A stretch of 64,000 nucleotides of DNA from an uncultured Gammaproteobacteria bacterium. GTDB lineage: Bacteria > Patescibacteriota > Patescibacteriia > Patescibacteriales > GWC2-42-12. Shown here piece by piece: positions 2,787 to 64,000 of this stretch. Below the pieces are notes generated by a model that was not told the DNA's origin, did not search any database, and worked only from the letters and a program-made list of their open reading frames with translations. The DNA is taken from NCBI GenBank assembly GCA_964560005.1, contig CAZLKB010000003.1:110951-174950 (forward strand). The letters run 5' to 3'. Positions within the stretch are counted from its first letter, which is position 1. The number at the start of each line of letters is the position of its first letter. A program made the position numbers and the translations under genes.

Positions 2787-2894
2787 GTCATTGCGGGCTT
2801 GACCCGCAATCCACCCCGCACTTTGCGGGGCGGCTCGTCCGCCTCGGCTTCGCCTTTAGGCGAGACGGGCCTTCGGCTTTAAGGCCGGAATGAC
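2787..2894. repeat. cluster of GC-rich hairpins (REP/BIME-like)
   Basis: Consecutive hairpins attgcggg-cttga-cccgcaat, ccccgca-ctt-tgcgggg and ggcctt-cggcttt-aaggcc, flanked by gtcattgcgg and ccggaatgac. The internal segment tccgcctcggcttcgcctttaggcgagacgggcc recurs inside eno (40842-40901, opposite strand). Confidence 0.7.
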
Positions 2895-2903
2895 AAAAAT
2901 TTT

Positions 2904-4235
2904 ATGACTCTAAAAGTCAGAAGAATACTTAGCCTGATATTTATAATTTTCTTTTTAACTATCGCCCCGGTTATTATACTCTACGCCGCCGGCTACAAGC
3001 TGAAAAGAAACGGTTTTGCCATAGAACGAACCGGCATATTTATTATTGAAAGCAGTCCTAAGGGCGCAAAAATATTGATTAACGGCAAGTCCCAAAAAAC
3101 GCTGACTAGCTCCTTGTTCAATCAAAATAATTTTGTAACTACACCGGCAAAAATAAAGAATCTTCTGCCCGGAGAATATGATCTTTCGCTGGAACTTGAT
3201 GGCTACTCAAGCTGGCAAAAAAAATTAAATATCAATCCCGGATCATCCACTTACGCAAAAAATATTTATTTATTTAAAAAAAATCTGCCGGTCCAAATAG
3301 CTTCTGCTGAAATTCAAGCTATTAGCTTTTCCCCGGATAAAAATCAGGCGGTAACTATATCCGCCAGCCAGCTTACTTTATATAATCTGAAAAACGAAAC
3401 GGCAAAATCCATTAACCAAAGTAATCTTAAAGGACAACACATAACCTGGCCGTTAGACGGCCGAATGCTGGTAGTTGATAATTATCTTTACGATACCTCC
3501 GCTTTTAACTCTATAATTGACTTAAACAAATTAACTCCGGGAAGTTTCAAGTATAAATGGAGTAATAATATTTTATTTTACCAAGATAAAACATCGGTTT
3601 ACCAGCTTAACGACGCGAATTTGCCCAAAAAAATAATTAATAATATAGATTTTAGCGATTATCTCATAAAGGACAAATTTTTATACTTAATTAATCAATC
3701 CAAGTCAGCCACCAGCCTAAAAACCATTAATCTGGCGTCAAGCAAACAAATTAAAGATATCAGCCTGCCGTCCGCCAATTATTCCTTTATCAACCCGGAG
3801 CAAACCCTAATTAATCTGCTTGATAATGACCATAAAATCCTCTACCTGATTAACCCGCTGGTTGATTATTACCCCTTGGTAGAGATTATTAATAATATTA
3901 AAACCACCGCTTGGTACGATAATAATAATTTGCTTTATACTAATGATTTTGAAATTTGGCTATACAGCTTAGAATCAAGGCAAAAAACTTTAATTACCAG
4001 AATTAGCGATTCCATTAACAGCGCCTTAATGCACCCGAATAAAAATTATATTATCTATTCCACCGATCAAACTATTAATACGATTGAACTGGATGAAAGA
4101 GAAAAAAGGAACACTACCGAATTGGTAAAATTTGACTCAATTAAAACCTTAGCCTTAAATACCTCGGGCGATATCCTTTATTTCTTCGGGCAAATCGGCA
4201 ACACGAAAGGATTATATAAATTATTAATCCAATAG
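2904..4235 (+). CDS. membrane-anchored PEGA-domain protein with beta-rich C-terminal region
   Basis: 443-aa ORF with an N-terminal TM helix. PEGA-like segment SSPKGAKILINGKSQ...PGEYDLSLELDGYSSWQKKLNINPGSS. Confidence 0.6.
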   Translation: MTLKVRRILSLIFIIFFLTIAPVIILYAAGYKLKRNGFAIERTGIFIIESSPKGAKILINGKSQKTLTSSLFNQNNFVTTPAKIKNLLPGEYDLSLELDGYSSWQKKLNINPGSSTYAKNIYLFKKNLPVQIASAEIQAISFSPDKNQAVTISASQLTLYNLKNETAKSINQSNLKGQHITWPLDGRMLVVDNYLYDTSAFNSIIDLNKLTPGSFKYKWSNNILFYQDKTSVYQLNDANLPKKIINNIDFSDYLIKDKFLYLINQSKSATSLKTINLASSKQIKDISLPSANYSFINPEQTLINLLDNDHKILYLINPLVDYYPLVEIINNIKTTAWYDNNNLLYTNDFEIWLYSLESRQKTLITRISDSINSALMHPNKNYIIYSTDQTINTIELDEREKRNTTELVKFDSIKTLALNTSGDILYFFGQIGNTKGLYKLLIQ

Positions 4236-10954: not shown

Positions 10955-11025
10955 TCGGGGATCGTCCAATGGTAAGACAGCGGCCTTTGGAGCCGCTAAT
11001 CATGGTTCGAATCCATGTCCCCGAA
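10955..11025 (+). tRNA. tRNA-Gln (anticodon UUG)
   Basis: Acceptor TCGGGGA/TCCCCGA (U1:A72). Anticodon arm GCGGC-CTTTGGA-GCCGC. T arm CATGG-TTCGAAT-CCATG. CCA is not encoded. Confidence 0.9.
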
Positions 11026-11111
11026 CAATGAAAAGACAATTTTATTAACGGGGTGAAAGTCCATACCCCTTAGTCATCTAATCTTTTTTCTTATTTAAGC
11101 CTGATTTGTTT

Positions 11112-18014: not shown

Positions 18015-18088
18015 GCGGGATTAGTACAATGGTAGTACATCTGCTTCCCAAGCAGGAAACGCGAGTCCGATTCTCGTATCCCGCTCCA
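18015..18088 (+). tRNA. tRNA-Gly (anticodon CCC), CCA encoded
   Basis: Acceptor GCGGGAT/ATCCCGC with discriminator U. Anticodon arm TCTGC-TTCCCAA-GCAGG. T arm GCGAG-TCCGATT-CTCGT. Confidence 0.9.
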
Positions 18089-19250: not shown

Positions 19251-19323
19251 GCCGATGTAGCTCAGCTGGTAGAGCAATGGTATCGTAAACCATAGGTCGT
19301 CGGTTCGATCCCGACCATCGGCT
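19251..19323 (+). tRNA. tRNA-Thr (anticodon CGU)
   Basis: Acceptor GCCGATG/CATCGGC. Anticodon arm ATGGT-ATCGTAA-ACCAT. T arm GTCGG-TTCGATC-CCGAC. Confidence 0.9.
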
Positions 19324-19331
19324 CAATTAAT

Positions 19332-27290: not shown

Positions 27291-27412
27291 ATTAAAGCCA
27301 ATTAAATGCTAATGAAAAACGAATTAAAGCGAATTTATTGATCTGGTTTATGAACTCATTCGTTTTAATTCGTTTTAATTCGCGGCTAATTCGTTTTTAT
27401 ATTTAACTAATC

Positions 27413-27975
27413 TCAGGGCAAGCTATAAGCCGGATTCTGTTCCGCCAATTGGCGGAGATGATCATCTATCTAGCCATGATGTTGCCATCATGGTCAAGCG
27501 AGCCACTTTTCGTTACACCGTAAAAACGGCGTAGTTTGCTCTTGCTCCAGGTAGGGTTTGCCGCGTCTCTCTGTCGCCAGAGGACGAATCCTGTAATTTA
27601 AGTTAATCGGATATCCTTTATAACCCAAATTTCAGAATACTTTTCACCTTTCACCGCTGCTGCGCAGCAGAAATCCCAATAGCCAAGAGCCAACATCCAA
27701 ACAAATTTCAAATTCAAATTGCCGAAATATAAAATTAATTTATATTTGAGTATAGAAATTTGGAATTTATTTGGACATTGGAAATTGAAAATTGGTCATT
27801 CCGCTGCGGAGCAGCGGTTAGTATTGTCTCTGTGGCACTTTCCCTGCTCCGCTATAAACGGAGCGGTGGATATTATCCATTACCATTTTCCAGCGCATAA
27901 TGCGCTTTTAGAGTCCGGACTTTCCTCGCCGATTAAAATAAAATTTTAACCGGTGTAATCATCCGCTTACCCTGA
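27413..27975 (-). ncRNA. rnpB: RNase P RNA (bacterial type A) with greatly expanded AT-rich P12 region
   Basis: On the minus strand, CR-I is GAGGAAAGTCCGGACTC (rc of 27911-27927), CR-V is ACAGAATCCGGCTTATAG (rc of 27423-27440) and P1 is agggtaagc/gcttgccct. GTGCCACAGAGACAA and GGTGAAAGGTGAAAAG resemble the E. coli M1 P10/11-J11/12 strings. Confidence 0.85.
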
Positions 27976-28059
27976 TATTAGCGAAATATAAAGAACAAAC
28001 TATAAAAAAATATTACCATTAAATAGAGTAAATGTCAAACTTTTTTAATTTGTTACTTG

Positions 28060-28133
28060 TGGACACAGCAGGACTCGGACCTGCGACCTTTCCGATGTGA
28101 ACGGAACGCTCTAACCAACTGAGCTATGTGTCC
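28060..28133 (-). tRNA. tRNA-Val (anticodon CAC)
   Basis: Acceptor GGACACA/TGTGTCC. Anticodon arm TTCCG-TTCACAT-CGGAA. T arm GCAGG-TCCGAGT-CCTGC (C at position 55 is unusual). Confidence 0.85.
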
Positions 28134-49834: not shown

Positions 49835-49878
49835 TCGCCGTTACACGGTTAAACTGACATCCTAATTAATATTACATG

Positions 49879-49949
49879 TCGGGATACTGGGAATTGAACC
49901 CAGTCTACACGCACCCGAAGCGTGTGTACTACCGGTATACGATATCCCG
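49879..49949 (-). tRNA. tRNA-Pro (anticodon CGG)
   Basis: Acceptor CGGGATA/TATCCCG. Anticodon arm CACGC-TTCGGGT-GCGTG. T arm CTGGG-TTCAATT-CCCAG. Confidence 0.9.
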
Positions 49950-50322: not shown

Positions 50323-50396
50323 TGGTGGACTTAGCGGGAGTCGAACCCGCGTCTCGGCAATGCGAATGCCGCGTACTACCACTATACTATAAGCCC
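50323..50396 (-). tRNA. tRNA-Ala (anticodon CGC), CCA encoded
   Basis: Acceptor GGGCTTA/TAAGTCC with the G3:U70 identity pair. Anticodon arm CGGCA-TTCGCAT-TGCCG. T arm GCGGG-TTCGACT-CCCGC. Confidence 0.9.
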
Positions 50397-61406: not shown

Positions 61407-62108
61407 TTATTGTTTATTCTCTTTAACCGCCGCCTTGCCTTCAAGCATCGCTTCCTTTACCAATCCCATTACCAGCTTAATGCCCTTGGTCGCGTCGTCA
61501 TTGGCCGGGATAATATATTTAACTCCGTCCGGGTTTACATTGGTATCGCAAACCGCCACCAACGGAATTTTTTTCTTTAAAGCTTCGGCAAAAGCGGTTT
61601 TCTCTTTTTTAATATCCCAAATAAAAATTATATCCGGGGTCTTGGTTAAGCTGACTAAGCCGCCGACATTGGTCTCCAGTTTGGCGATCTCGCGGTCGAA
61701 ATCAAGCCTCTCTTTCTTAGTATATTTATCCAGCTTGCCGCTATCTCTTTTCTCAATCAAATCTTTGAGTTTTCTGACTAAATTCCTAATTACGGCAAAG
61801 TTGGTTAACAAGCCGCCCAGCCATCTTTCCGAGACATAGGGCATATTGGTTTCTTCAGCGGTTTTTTTCAAAATCTTTTTGACTTGCATTTTAGTACCGA
61901 CCAGGAGGATTGATTTGCCTTCTTGGGCCTGTTTTTTTAAATACTCTAAAGCCGCTTCCAGCATTACCTGGGTTTTTCTCAAATCTATGATATGAATGCC
62001 TTTTCTTGAACCAAAAATAAAAGGCTCCATTTTCGGGTGCCATTTTGAAGTGCGATGCCCAAAGTGCATTCCGGCTTTAAGCAGCTCTTCGATTGAAGGT
62101 ATTTTCAT
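61407..62108 (-). CDS. rpsB: 30S ribosomal protein S2
   Basis: LLKAGMHFGHRTSKWHPKM, ERWLGGLLTNF. Trimmed to ATG (MKIPSIEEL), because the track start is GTG. Confidence 0.95.
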   Translation of the reverse strand: MKIPSIEELLKAGMHFGHRTSKWHPKMEPFIFGSRKGIHIIDLRKTQVMLEAALEYLKKQAQEGKSILLVGTKMQVKKILKKTAEETNMPYVSERWLGGLLTNFAVIRNLVRKLKDLIEKRDSGKLDKYTKKERLDFDREIAKLETNVGGLVSLTKTPDIIFIWDIKKEKTAFAEALKKKIPLVAVCDTNVNPDGVKYIIPANDDATKGIKLVMGLVKEAMLEGKAAVKENKQ

Positions 62109-62250
62109 ATTTTTCGCTTTCCTTTTCACCCCGCCTTGGCGGGGCTTAGCCTCTACTCCGAATCATCCCGCCTTAGCGGAACAAGGAAATTAAAGGAGTA
62201 TGAGAGATTTATTAATTACTTAAAAATAGCAGTGTCTGCTATTAAAATAG

Positions 62251-62277
62251 ATTATAATATTATTTCTAATCTGTCAA
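62251..62277 (-). promoter_or_regulatory. near-consensus sigma70 promoter for rpsB-tsf
   Basis: On the minus strand: TTGACA (rc of 62272-62277), a 15-nt spacer, then TATAAT (rc of 62251-62256). The leader of about 135 nt contains the GC hairpins agcagacactgct and ccccgccaaggcgggg. Confidence 0.5.
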
Positions 62278-62377
62278 CCTCGCCTAAAGGCGGGCGGATC
62301 TTGCTAAAATTTATTTTTTATGTTAGTGTGAAATCTATTGAATATAAGTTTGAAAATTTCATTAAGGAAAATGTGGT

Positions 62378-62454
62378 TGAGGGGTGGCGAAGTGGCTAAA
62401 CGCAACTGCCTTCGGAGCAGTTATTCGCTGGTTCGAATCCAGCCCCCTCGGCCA
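62378..62454 (+). tRNA. tRNA-Arg (anticodon UCG), CCA encoded
   Basis: Acceptor TGAGGGG/CCCCTCG (U1-G72 wobble). D arm GCG-AAGTGGCTAAA-CGC. Anticodon arm ACTGC-CTTCGGA-GCAGT. T arm GCTGG-TTCGAAT-CCAGC. Discriminator G followed by CCA. Confidence 0.8.
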
Positions 62455-62474
62455 ATCGATCTTTATAGATTTTA

Positions 62475-62826
62475 CGGCGGAGAATGTGGCCGCCCTCCTT
62501 TCGTGCATTGGAGAGGTGCGGTAGTCTCGGTCACGTTCTCCGCCGCCAATTTGGGTGCGCGCGTAGCTCAAAAGTAGAGCGTCGCCCTAACCCGGCGATA
62601 ATATGCCTGGTGCAACTCCGGCCGTGCGCACCATTCCCTTACGGCGGAAAGTTCGTAAAACTGTCCCTTTCTCTTCATAGGTGTTTTGAGACAGACGCAT
62701 TTTCCGCCGCCAATTTGGCCAAGAGGTTGCTCGATGATACGAGCGTTCAGTATCGCGGGCGGTTCCCAGCCGTCATGCAATATATTTAATGAATACGCGC
62801 AGGTTCAATTCCTGCCCTCTTGGCCG
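62475..62826 (+). ncRNA. array of four GC-rich acceptor-stem/tRNA-like modules (unassigned)
   Basis: Module a (62475-62548) is a 10-bp stem plus CCA. Module b (62557-62633) is a near-cloverleaf ending in ACCA. Module c (62642-62712) is a 9-bp stem plus CCA. Module d (62717-62826) is a 10-bp stem with D-like, anticodon-like (CCC) and canonical T arms. There is no credible ORF. Strand is inferred from T-loop polarity and the CCA ends. Confidence 0.55.
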
Positions 62827-62870
62827 ATAATTTTTGAAGTTTTAAAAAACTTCAACCCTAAAACAACTTT

Positions 62871-63074
62871 GGCGAGAGTGATTTGCAGACGCATTGTTTT
62901 TTATGCAACGGTGAAATTCCGTTGACGTGTCGCCCGCCGTCCCAAGCATACCTGCTCGGAATGAGAAGGACAACAGAGTCCGGAGCTAATGTAGGACAGC
63001 TCACCTGGCGCTAAGCGCTAGGGACAACCTGCTCGGGCACCATAAATAACAAGGAGCGCTGTTTCACTCTCGCC
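62871..63074 (+). ncRNA. unassigned structured RNA, about 204 nt, closed by an 11-bp helix
   Basis: ggcgagagtga (62871-62881) pairs perfectly with tcactctcgcc (63064-63074). Four internal hairpins, GC-rich, ORF-free. The strand is uncertain. Confidence 0.45.
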
Positions 63075-63158
63075 TCCTTAATATAATTTTCAAACTATAA
63101 TAATTCATCGCGAATTTATTCGTTAAATTCGTTTTAAATTCGTGTATTATTCGTTTTT

Positions 63159-63449
63159 ATGAAAAAAGACATCCACCCGAAATATTATCCGGAAGCCAAA
63201 GTAGTTTGCGCTTGCGGCAATGCTTTTACCACCGGCTCAACCCTAAAAGAGCTTAAGGTGGAAATCTGCTCGGCCTGCCATCCCTTCTATACCGGCAAAC
63301 AAAAGCTGATTGACAGCGCCCGCCGCGTAGAAAAATTCCAGGCTAAAATTGAAGCTAAAACCAAGAGCAAGCCCAAGCATAAGAGCAAGAAGGCCAAGCG
63401 CGTGGCCAAGACTAAGGCCAAGGCAGATAGAAAAACCGAAAAAAAGTAA
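63159..63449 (+). CDS. rpmE: 50S ribosomal protein L31 (Cys-containing type) with lysine-rich C-terminal tail
   Basis: [28 protein letters not shown] ... [13 protein letters not shown]. Confidence 0.95.
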
Positions 63450-63658
63450 CTACACCATTTTAAAGACGGCATTCTTTATAGTATGGCGAAATATTGCTAT
63501 ACTCTATAGAGAGAGCCGTTTTTATTTATAAAGTTTGGGCTAAGCTTATTAAATTTGCGAACAAATTGAATTTCTATAAAGTGGTTTGAAAATTAATTAA
63601 TTATATCATTGAAAATTAATTAAAAATTGAGAATTGAAAATTGAAAATTATTATTTTT

Positions 63659-64000
63659 ATGTATTCAAATATTAAACAAAAATTTAAAGACTTGGAAAGC
63701 CAGTTATCAGACCAGGCGATTATTTCCGACTTAAAAAAATTGAAAGAAATTTCCAAACAGCACAGTGACCTTAAAACCGTGGTTGAACTGATTTTAGAAT
63801 TGGAAAAAAAACAAACTCAACTGGCTCAGAGCGAAGAGATGATCAGGCAAGAATCCGATCAAGAATTATTGAAAATCGCCAAGGAAGAAACCACTGAATT
63901 AAAAAAACAAGTTGAAAAATTAACTAACGAGATCGAGACCGAACTCCACCCGGCCGACCCCAACGATAAAAAAAATATAATCATGGAAATCAGAGCCGGC
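63659..64000 (+). CDS. prfA: peptide chain release factor 1, N-terminal part (runs off window)
   Basis: Own translation from the ATG at 63659: MYSNIKQKFKDLESQLSDQAIISDLKKLKEISKQHSDLKTVVE ... HPADPNDKKNIIMEIRAG, which matches the RF1 pattern (LLPKDPNDxKNvilEIRAG). rpmE-prfA adjacency is common. Confidence 0.85.
   Translation, partial: MYSNIKQKFKDLESQLSDQAIISDLKKLKEISKQHSDLKTVVELILELEKKQTQLAQSEEMIRQESDQELLKIAKEETTELKKQVEKLTNEIETELHPADPNDKKNIIMEIRAG

Follow-up and report, generated by a model that had tools for sequence, protein, structure and literature searches.

A helix-enclosed RNA cassette in the leader of rpmE

The 64,000-nucleotide (nt) stretch of contig CAZLKB010000003.1 analysed here, referred to as the window, carries a 748-nt protein-free cassette (62348-63095, + strand) in front of rpmE, the gene for ribosomal protein L31. 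The cassette contains four structured units (a to d), a "tRNA-Arg" (T1) and a 204-nt RNA (e204), and is enclosed by a 21-bp helix that we call the stalk. We think it probable, though well short of certain, that units a to d are modules of a single non-coding RNA cassette in the rpmE 5′ leader, a polycistronic precursor that is closed by the stalk and cut into its modules. Our reading of 62000-64000 bears out the original prediction, which had described the four units as a tRNA-mimic array, in their coordinates and elements. That prediction had missed the enclosing helix and the clade-wide, rapidly reshuffled array in the rpmE leader. All cassette structures are predictions, and the shuffle z-scores given below are from RNAfold-type minimum free energy (MFE) values (200 shuffles for unit a, for example); each unit folds far better than its shuffles. 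Loci are denoted by L and a number, and the features of the window locus are as follows.

62301-62329, + strand: promoter-like element with -35 TTGCTA, a 17-nt spacer and an extended -10 TGT-TAGTGT; the conserved, putative rpmE promoter
62348-62368, + strand: 5′ strand of the closing helix (stalk), GTTTGAAAATTTCATTAAGGA, complementary to 63075-63095
62378-62454, + strand: module T1, a 77-nt tRNA ending in G-CCA with anticodon UCG (ARAGORN; Rfam, 58.7 bits)
62458-62471, + strand: small AU-rich linker hairpin of the global fold, inside the conserved post-T1 linker (CCA)ATCGATCTTTATAGATTT
62475-62548, + strand: module a, a rod-shaped hairpin built on an 18-bp basal helix and ending 3′ in G-CCA (z = -5.96), in one family with c
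62557-62633, + strand: module b, an aberrant tRNA-like unit with anticodon loop CUAACCC, T loop UGCAACU and 3′ A-CCA (ARAGORN; Rfam)
62642-62712, + strand: module c, paralogue of a, with an 11-bp basal stem and 3′ CCA (z = -4.34; 73.9 bits with covariance model R1)
62717-62826, + strand: module d, an oversized tRNA-like unit with a 10-bp terminal stem, a D-like hairpin, a ~20-bp arm and a T arm (z = -5.56)
62834-62855, + strand: small AU-rich hairpin of the global fold, TTGAAGTTTTAAAAAACTTCAA, with counterparts at the equal relative position in L146, L163 and L169
62871-63074, + strand: module e204, a 204-nt multi-branched RNA with an 11-bp closing stem (-85.9 kcal/mol, z = -5.83)
63075-63095, + strand: 3′ strand of the closing helix, TCCTTAATATAATTTTCAAAC, pairing with 62348-62368
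63159-63449, + strand: rpmE, followed by prfA (open reading frame list; Pfam Ribosomal_L31 match on an identical contig)

The unrestricted MFE fold of 62348-63095 closes with the 21-bp helix, and T1, a, b, c, d, the two small hairpins and e204 form separate domains within it. The fold is more stable on the + strand than on the - strand (-315.7 vs -292.7 kcal/mol, a gap of 23 kcal/mol), and the + strand is the richer in G.U pairs. The region is GC-rich and free of genuine open reading frames (ORFs), as had been claimed: GC content is 0.47-0.60 over 62400-62800 vs 0.05-0.31 in the adjacent spacers, and the ORFs over the cassette (101, 79 and 70 amino acids) are mechanical only, belong to no Pfam family and are not conserved. 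The same string, CCAATTTGG, does join both a to b and c to d, and a and c both start with ttacggcgga. The diverged tandem duplication of a two-part unit that had been read from this is not supported, since only a and c are paralogous, b and d belong to unrelated families, and the order of modules differs in L171, where d and b adjoin without intervening hairpins, and in L009, where one hairpin precedes d.

The stalk was found in 12 of 12 arrays, always as a pairing of 21 nt just behind the promoter-proximal leader with the 21 nt behind the last module. In the alignment of the 12 sequences, 91.7% of cells were paired and both sides had changed in 10 of the 21 pairs, values attained by none of 500 shuffles, and sliding the partner by 1-3 columns brought pairing down to only 29-53%. 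The 14 one-sided changes are G.U pairs, which speaks for an RNA helix on the + strand rather than a DNA-level inverted repeat. A covarying duplex of ~20 bp or longer flanking an RNA is what would be expected of an RNase III stalk, and the closing helix is such a duplex.

The promoter-like element upstream of the stalk recurs as TTGCYAAAA...TATGTTAAYCT upstream of rpmE in nearly all relatives, array present or not, and its conserved form in the gaps between rpsB and rpmE is TTGCCAAAA-N-TATGTTAAYCT. A generic sigma-70 scan gave no match at 62301-62329. The scan for terminator-like sites on the + strand returned none between the cassette and rpmE, so that the two presumably form one transcription unit.

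Several other features of the rpmE leader and of the neighbouring rpsB leader were recorded. The tail of the stalk reads (A)CCUCCUUAAU and resembles the 3′ end of 16S rRNA. The last 60-70 nt before the rpmE start (63100-63158 in the window) are filled by 4-8 copies of (T/A)ATTCG, one every ~10-13 nt; the repeats are also present in L003, L010, L090, L105 and L173, at loci with and without arrays, and a similar stretch adjoins the RNase P RNA gene at 27352-27400 of the window. The rpsB leader (62130-62215 of the window, - strand) is conserved at all rpsB loci as ...CCTCTACTCC...GGAGTATGAGAGATT..., with variable hairpin insertions between the conserved arms, and the window copy has no Rfam match.

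Module families

T1 had been taken in the original prediction for a genuine tRNA-Arg(UCG) flanking the array. This is contradicted by its place inside the closing helix and by its body, which combines Gln-type features (U1, a D stem of 3 bp and an anticodon stem of 6 bp) with an Arg anticodon; it comes closest to the window's own tRNA-Gln, at 70% identity. The L009 homologue is 83% identical and has anticodon UUG, a relative in L146 has UUU, and in a fourth copy of the family the anticodon arm is truncated. T1 itself has G18G19, T54-Psi55-C56, U33 and a purine at 37, the elbow and loop features of a canonical tRNA. The linker behind it, (CCA)ATCGATCTTTATAGATTT, is found again behind the first module in the other arrays.

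Unit b was called tRNA-Val(AAC) by ARAGORN and scored 44.6 bits with the Rfam tRNA model (gathering score 29), the lowest of the eight tRNA hits in the window, the others reaching 53.9-69.5 bits; its shuffle z is only -2.23. The acceptor stem is an ordinary one of 7 bp and U33 is present. The unit further has A34, which is non-standard for Val, C37, a D loop AAAAGUA without GG and a T loop UGCAACU, and thus is without the G18G19/TPsiC elbow signature. Its homologue in L171 (553-625) has a matching leader, acceptor stem and trailer with canonical D and T loops, and its anticodon loop, CUCCACG, led ARAGORN to call it Trp-CCA. The claim that none of the four units is a normal tRNA stands for a and c, which are unmatched, for d, which is sub-threshold, and for b in its aberrant loops, but b passes both ARAGORN and Rfam, so that one refuting outcome named in the original prediction is partly realised. 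Likewise, the 10-bp stems that had been reported are present, but consist partly of pairing between a leader GG(U) and the (A)CC of CCA, and the helix of a runs to 18 bp while the acceptor stem of b has 7.

Twelve array modules from the window and 11 other loci pass the Rfam tRNA threshold. Some are near-canonical (Thr-CGU, Gln-CUG and Gly-GCC). Others depart from their nominal identity: the "Ala-UGC" of L088 has A3-U70 and no G3.U70, which alanine tRNA identity requires and which the window's genuine tRNA-Ala carries; the "Leu-CAA" (73 nt) and "Ser-GCU" (82 nt) are without the long variable arms of class II tRNAs; and in one L093 module an extra helix lengthens the anticodon arm. A decoding tRNA should have a conserved anticodon and a body that agrees with it. 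Among homologues, the anticodon is UCG, UUG or UUU in T1 and AAC or CCA in b, and this variation, together with the mismatch of body and anticodon, suggests that the tRNA-like modules are not dedicated decoding tRNAs. The presence of nearly canonical modules beside aberrant ones suggests that arrays recruit real tRNA genes and then remodel them.

Units a and c are hairpins with no Rfam match even at E = 10. The stem cggcggagaa/ttctccgccg of a, directly followed by CCA, extends in RNAfold to 18 contiguous bp, and the unit has an MFE of -45.6 kcal/mol, with none of 200 shuffles folding equally well. The family consists of a, c, L009 3427-3517 (- strand) and L169 1284-1369, which score 74-82 bits with covariance model R1, and an R1 search of 313 kb for further a/c hairpins returned only these four training sequences. 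Stem positions 4, 6 and 7 have undergone compensatory changes between G-C and A-U, as read from alignment A5. The apical 5′ strand of the family is pyrimidine-rich (CCUCCUU, GAUCCUC) and the 3′ strand reads GAGGUG(AUC) (62490-62520 in a and 62664-62690 in c); in the window, L009 and L169 these strands resemble an intramolecular Shine-Dalgarno/anti-Shine-Dalgarno (SD/anti-SD) duplex.

The long arm of unit d is capped by UUCCCAG, the T arm is canonical, and the 3′ end is G-CC-G, without CCA. Homologues are present at L009 3324-3427 (- strand) and L171 383-517. Compensatory changes within the family affect the terminal stem (A-U, G-C and G.U), the distal arm (G.U, A-U and G-C) and the T stem (A-U and G-C), and the end loop is unconserved (UUCCCAG, UUCCUAG and UAUCCAG); in the L171 copy the T loop is broken (UCAGAUU). 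Relatives thus keep the stems of both the a/c and d families by compensatory changes instead of drifting; drift without such changes was an outcome under which the original prediction would have been given up. The best Rfam match of unit d is tRNA-Sec (RF01852), at 27.2 bits for the window copy and 30.2 bits for the L009 homologue. This identity was rejected on the score, which lies below the gathering score of 47 bits, on the missing UCA anticodon, and on a stack of 10 + 5 bp in place of 8/5 (13 bp).

The neighbouring 204-nt RNA, e204, is strongly structured, as had been noted, and directly adjoins the 3′ stalk strand. Rfam has no match to it. It belongs to a family with members of 70-161 nt in L001, L088, L093, L163 and L171, whose closing stems GGCRRGAG/CTCYYGCC covary.

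Two further families were seen in the arrays of relatives. E-last, an undescribed motif of ~80 nt, is the last module before the 3′ stalk strand in nine arrays (L009, L008, L087, L001, L088, L093, L163, L169 and L170). It has a closing stem GYGAGCRTTGA/TCAAYGCTCRC, an inner stem CGUC/GACG and an A-rich bulge, with compensatory change in 10 of 19 predicted pairs. The window is without E-last and has e204 abutting the stalk instead. M6 is a long rod whose apical hairpin, GGG-CUCAUAA-CCC, reproduces exactly the anticodon stem-loop of bacterial initiator tRNA-fMet, with its three G-C pairs and CAU. It was located in L146 (- strand, ~733-805), L163 (2248-2332), L169 (~1411-1496), L170 (325-460, two copies) and L008 (- strand, ~2633-2776), with the GGG/CCC pairs invariant in these five loci; the window has none. 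A suspected T loop in M6 was dismissed, as its UUCGAAU string proved to be a helix strand.

Searches of Rfam with the window and the 11 other loci, at gathering thresholds and at permissive E-values, returned tRNA hits only, plus the sub-threshold tRNA-Sec match and one to the Tymovirus tRNA-like structure; the latter (20.6 bits vs a gathering score of 40) was taken as chance T-loop similarity. No matches were obtained to Y RNA, signal recognition particle RNA, 6S RNA, known L31 leaders or self-cleaving ribozymes, and no clean Rfam hit spans the region. Transfer-messenger RNA (tmRNA) was rejected with no ARAGORN call, no Rfam match at E up to 10, and C3-G70 in unit d. A bacterial Y RNA (YrlA) was set aside likewise, with no Rfam match and with rpsB, tsf, rpmE and prfA as neighbours but no rsr. 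A group I intron was also rejected: Intron_gpI had no match at E up to 10 in 62200-63200, and the insertions in d, at 30-60 nt, are too short. [quoted passage not shown] We found no description of an equivalent array in the literature on Patescibacteria, the candidate phyla radiation (CPR), and the earlier statement that no described family has this layout agrees with both Rfam and this literature.

Distribution and turnover of the arrays

Comparison of RpsB sequences assigned the window to a CPR lineage of the Falkowbacteria/Parcubacteria type. Most relatives have rpsB and rpmE side by side in divergent orientation, 200-400 bp apart, with the conserved promoter and a short leader of rpmE in the gap. 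Two kinds of enlarged gap were seen, with ORF cargo upstream of the rpmE promoter or with ORF-free GC-rich arrays downstream of it. Arrays were found by inspecting enlarged gaps and contigs reached through L31 homologues, giving 12 in all (the window, L001, L008, L009, L087, L088, L093, L146, L163, L169, L170 and L171); the genome and metagenome scans covered rpsB-linked loci only, which biases any statement that arrays always lie between rpsB and rpmE, and of the window's own genome 64 kb was covered, so that further copies may lie elsewhere in it. A BLAST search of the units against 80 genome loci gave a match in L009 only.

In the RpsB tree the array-bearing genomes form one clade, in which the members L002 and L165-168 are without an array. 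This distribution suggests one origin and vertical inheritance in the clade, with occasional loss. Module content turns over rapidly within it. The number of modules ranges from 2 (L170) to more than 10 (L093), with about 12 families recurring in different orders, and number, order and identity differ among genomes whose RpsB and L31 are ~85-90% identical.

Other observations at these loci concern the cassettes and the gap itself. L087 has a second tandem helix-enclosed cassette with arms GCCTTTGTGGATTTCATAGAGG and CCTCTATAAAATTCACAAGC (770-955 of L087:1215-2240, - strand). A public gene call of 187 amino acids over the array of L163 (1838-2401) is spurious, with four in-frame stops under translation table 11. 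The stretch between the rpsB and rpmE promoters is a hot spot at which ORF cargo is inserted (L015, L017, L020/L113, L023, L037/L131, L045, L086 and L102). The cargo of L017 (2867-3750, - strand) is a toxin-antitoxin pair of MNT (a Polbeta nucleotidyltransferase) and HepT (a HEPN RNase). L020 (~2888-3830, - strand) and likewise L113 have inverted repeats tggcagattcggacaaa and tttgtccgatctgcca around a structured stretch of ~100 nt, followed by a 211-codon frame with ...YSRYADDLFF...; the arrangement may be that of a retron, with an ncRNA and a short reverse transcriptase (RT), but Pfam returned no match.

Proposed processing of the cassette

In the mechanism that we propose, the cassette would be transcribed from the conserved rpmE promoter with rpmE downstream. 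The closing helix would serve as a processing stalk of the rRNA-operon type, at which an RNase III-type nuclease would detach the cassette from the rpmE-prfA mRNA. RNase P would then cut at the 5′ side of the acceptor-like stems, and endo- and exonucleases would cleave and trim in the AU-rich linkers (CCA-AUUU-G) behind CCA, releasing the modules as stable RNAs of 70-200 nt, several of them with N-CCA ends. The tRNA-like modules would act as tRNA-derived mimics and processing handles with no dedicated decoding role.

The module ends are consistent with this scheme. N-CCA ends are present on four of five window modules vs two of six ordinary tRNAs of the window, and over all arrays CCA stands at 27% of module ends vs a background of 10%. 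Linkers of the AAUUU type occupy 20 of 43 junctions, against a background of 17%. In T1, a, b and c the N-CCA lies behind a stem of at least 7 bp; d ends in G-CC-G, and leader GG pairs with CC, perhaps hindering RNase P. Among the ordinary tRNA genes of the window, whose leaders are AT-rich, CCA is encoded in Gly-CCC and Ala-CGC (18015-18088 and 50323-50396) and not in those at 10955-11026, 19251-19324, 28059-28133 and 49878-49949. The RNase P RNA of the window (27410-27974, - strand) is of class A (166.8 bits) and spans 565 nt vs 367 positions in the model, so that it must carry large insertions.

Several points weigh against this processing scheme. We infer transcription, cleavage by RNase III and RNase P, and accumulation of modules alike. 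The stalk is AU-rich with a 2x2 internal loop and may not suit RNase III; its role could be regulatory or architectural instead. Not all modules have CCA ends, which are absent from d, the L169 hairpin, E-last and M6, and several modules have a 5′ leader that base-pairs with the CC of CCA, a pairing that hinders RNase P in model systems. Many array tRNAs retain 7-nt loops with U33 and sensible anticodons, and some of them may be functional. With only 2-4 members in each of the a/c, b and d families, covariation in these rests on few sequences. Finally, the loss of the array in L002 and L165-168 argues that it is dispensable.

As to what released RNAs would do, our guess is that they titrate or distract tRNA-binding factors by mimicry or as decoys. 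RNase P/RNase Z punctuation, decoys and mimicry, the roles put forward in the original prediction, are all plausible. A farther-reaching version, which we hold only tentatively and consider improbable, is that the cassettes are a new chromosomal RNA class of diversifying mimics of tRNAs and anticodon stem-loops, acting in trans as decoys or sponges for tRNA-recognising proteins; the likeliest targets would then be tRNA-cleaving toxins (VapC/PIN, HEPN or anticodon nucleases) or components of translation initiation. The free turnover of "anticodons", the variants with a pyrimidine at 37 and the initiator stem-loop of M6 in five other arrays would fit such a role, as would the toxin-antitoxin cargo (MNT-HepT, L017) that the gap also collects. 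The anticodon stem-loop of initiator tRNA is the cleavage target of enteric VapC (PMC4705866).

Alternative explanations

The cassette could also be an unprocessed cis-regulatory leader of rpmE-prfA-prmC, whose domains bind a translation component (L31, the ribosome, elongation factor EF-Tu, an aminoacyl-tRNA synthetase or RNase P) and so set downstream expression. We regard this as unlikely, although several observations fit it: the position of the cassette is invariably behind the rpmE promoter and in front of rpmE, without an intervening terminator, the last module is stacked directly on the closing helix, an SD-like AAGGA and an anti-SD-like CCUCCUUA are present in leader and tail, M6 of other arrays holds the exact initiator-tRNA anticodon stem-loop, and array-free relatives carry a different small hairpin and U tract in the same place. 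It accounts less well for modules whose number, order and identity shift between close genomes, which would be unusual in a leader that senses a ligand or protein. The rpmE start lies 60-90 nt past the helix and is not sequestered by it, and the N-CCA ends and AU-rich linkers resemble processing sites.

That T1 and b are ordinary tRNA genes of an operon upstream of rpmE, with a, c and d as structured spacers or processing hairpins, seems to us quite unlikely. Both units are called by ARAGORN and exceed the Rfam threshold, other arrays hold high scorers with normal anticodons (Thr-CGU at 69 bits, Gln-UUG at 65.7 bits), and co-transcription of tRNA and mRNA is well known, for example from the E. 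coli tufB operon. The anticodon shifts between homologues of T1 and of b, the residues and missing elbow signature of b, and the "Ala" of L088 without G3.U70 all speak against ordinary tRNAs, and the window already holds tRNA-Gln(UUG) and tRNA-Val(CAC) outside the cassette. Units a, c and d, for their part, are kept by compensatory changes and are longer and GC-richer than spacers need to be.

A decaying tRNA cluster, in which the units would be neutrally drifting pseudogenes with left-over structure, would explain the aberrant loops, insertions and lost CCA ends (including the T loop of the L171 d copy), the variable anticodons and the absence of the array from some members of the clade. Decay is nonetheless very unlikely, given that the stems are perfect or nearly so (18 contiguous bp in a), that compensatory changes occur in a/c, d, E-last and the stalk, that a GC content of 0.5-0.6 is kept where neutral spacers have 0.05-0.3, and that the non-tRNA families e204, E-last and M6 are conserved from locus to locus.

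A non-autonomous mobile DNA element, resembling a miniature inverted-repeat transposable element or BOX element, with the 21-bp arms as terminal inverted repeats and the modules as cargo, is barely credible: terminal repeats around variable modular sub-repeats do recall pneumococcal BOX elements, L087 has two tandem cassettes, and the gap is a hot spot for ORF cargo, but there is a single copy per locus at a constant site, no further occurrence of the arms was seen in the 64-kb window or in ~1 Mb of retrieved loci, the patterns of unit d and E-last are unmatched in viral contigs and the whole cassette in phage and plasmid collections, the distribution tracks the RpsB tree, and the arms differ by G.U-compatible changes that are mismatches at the DNA level.

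Significance and comparison with known systems

CPR genomes are tiny, and yet this clade retains 0.2-1 kb of GC-rich, protein-free structured RNA before a ribosomal protein gene and remodels it quickly. If processed as proposed, the cassette would join an rRNA-style stalk to a bacterial version of the t-element punctuation known from organelles, and would be a source of several new small RNAs (a/c hairpins, d, e204, E-last and M6). The arrays offer a natural system in which tRNA genes are recruited, lose their decoding identity and turn into mimics. They also carry a risk for annotation, as tRNA finders label some modules as Arg, Val, Ala, Leu, Ser or Trp tRNAs. The closing helix provides a simple experimental handle.

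In function, the [hairpin-CCA][tRNA-like] layout before an mRNA is best compared with the t-elements and acceptor-stem-like stem-loops of plant mitochondria (PMC1920247). These non-canonical tRNA-like structures and simple stem-loops are embedded in longer transcripts beside mRNAs and serve as cis signals for RNase P and RNase Z, and the excised t-element can be stable and receive C or CCA. The plant elements differ in being organellar and single; they lack an enclosing helix, an encoded CCA and any arrangement in arrays of up to ten or more modules. The stalks of rRNA operons are also comparable, in that a long-range helix of ~20 bp surrounds a structured tRNA-containing RNA, presumably for excision. 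Unlike these, the cassette has no rRNA inside it (its Rfam hits are to tRNA only) and sits in the 5′ untranslated region of a protein gene, and its RNase III cut is putative. In the E. coli operons thrU-tyrU-glyT-thrT-tufB and metY-nusA-infB, tRNAs lie upstream of a translation ORF, from which RNase P, E or III detaches them. The tRNAs of these operons are genuine and of fixed identity, in contrast to the drifting anticodons, the disagreement of body and anticodon and the many non-tRNA modules, the majority, of the cassettes.

The YrlA Y RNAs (PMC4201824) are tRNA mimics with T- and D-arm features and a long terminal stem that sometimes occur in tandem, and the tRNA-like domain of one Y RNA is cut by RNase P and given CCA (PMC4201824). 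They differ from the cassette in their length of ~100 nt, their Ro60-binding stem motif and their place beside rsr; the cassette has neither a YrlA hit nor rsr. Unit d owes its weak match to tRNA-Sec (RF01852) to its extra length, a terminal stem of 9-10 bp and a small-looped D stem of 5 bp, and differs from tRNA-Sec in a 15-bp stack of terminal and T stems vs 13, in having no UCA, and in an end loop that is unconserved among the three homologues. The tRNA cluster of phage T4 encodes co-transcribed tRNAs together with stable "species 1 and 2" RNAs of unknown function, matured by RNase P. The cassette resembles it in mixing tRNAs with non-tRNA RNAs and differs in being chromosomal, vertically inherited and helix-enclosed, with no phage or plasmid match. 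The individual ingredients, namely tRNA-like processing signals, processing stalks and tRNA-mRNA co-transcription, are thus already known. Their combination is, to our knowledge, new, and we know of no other helix-enclosed, fast-reshuffled array of tRNA-derived and other structured modules in the leader of a ribosomal protein gene.

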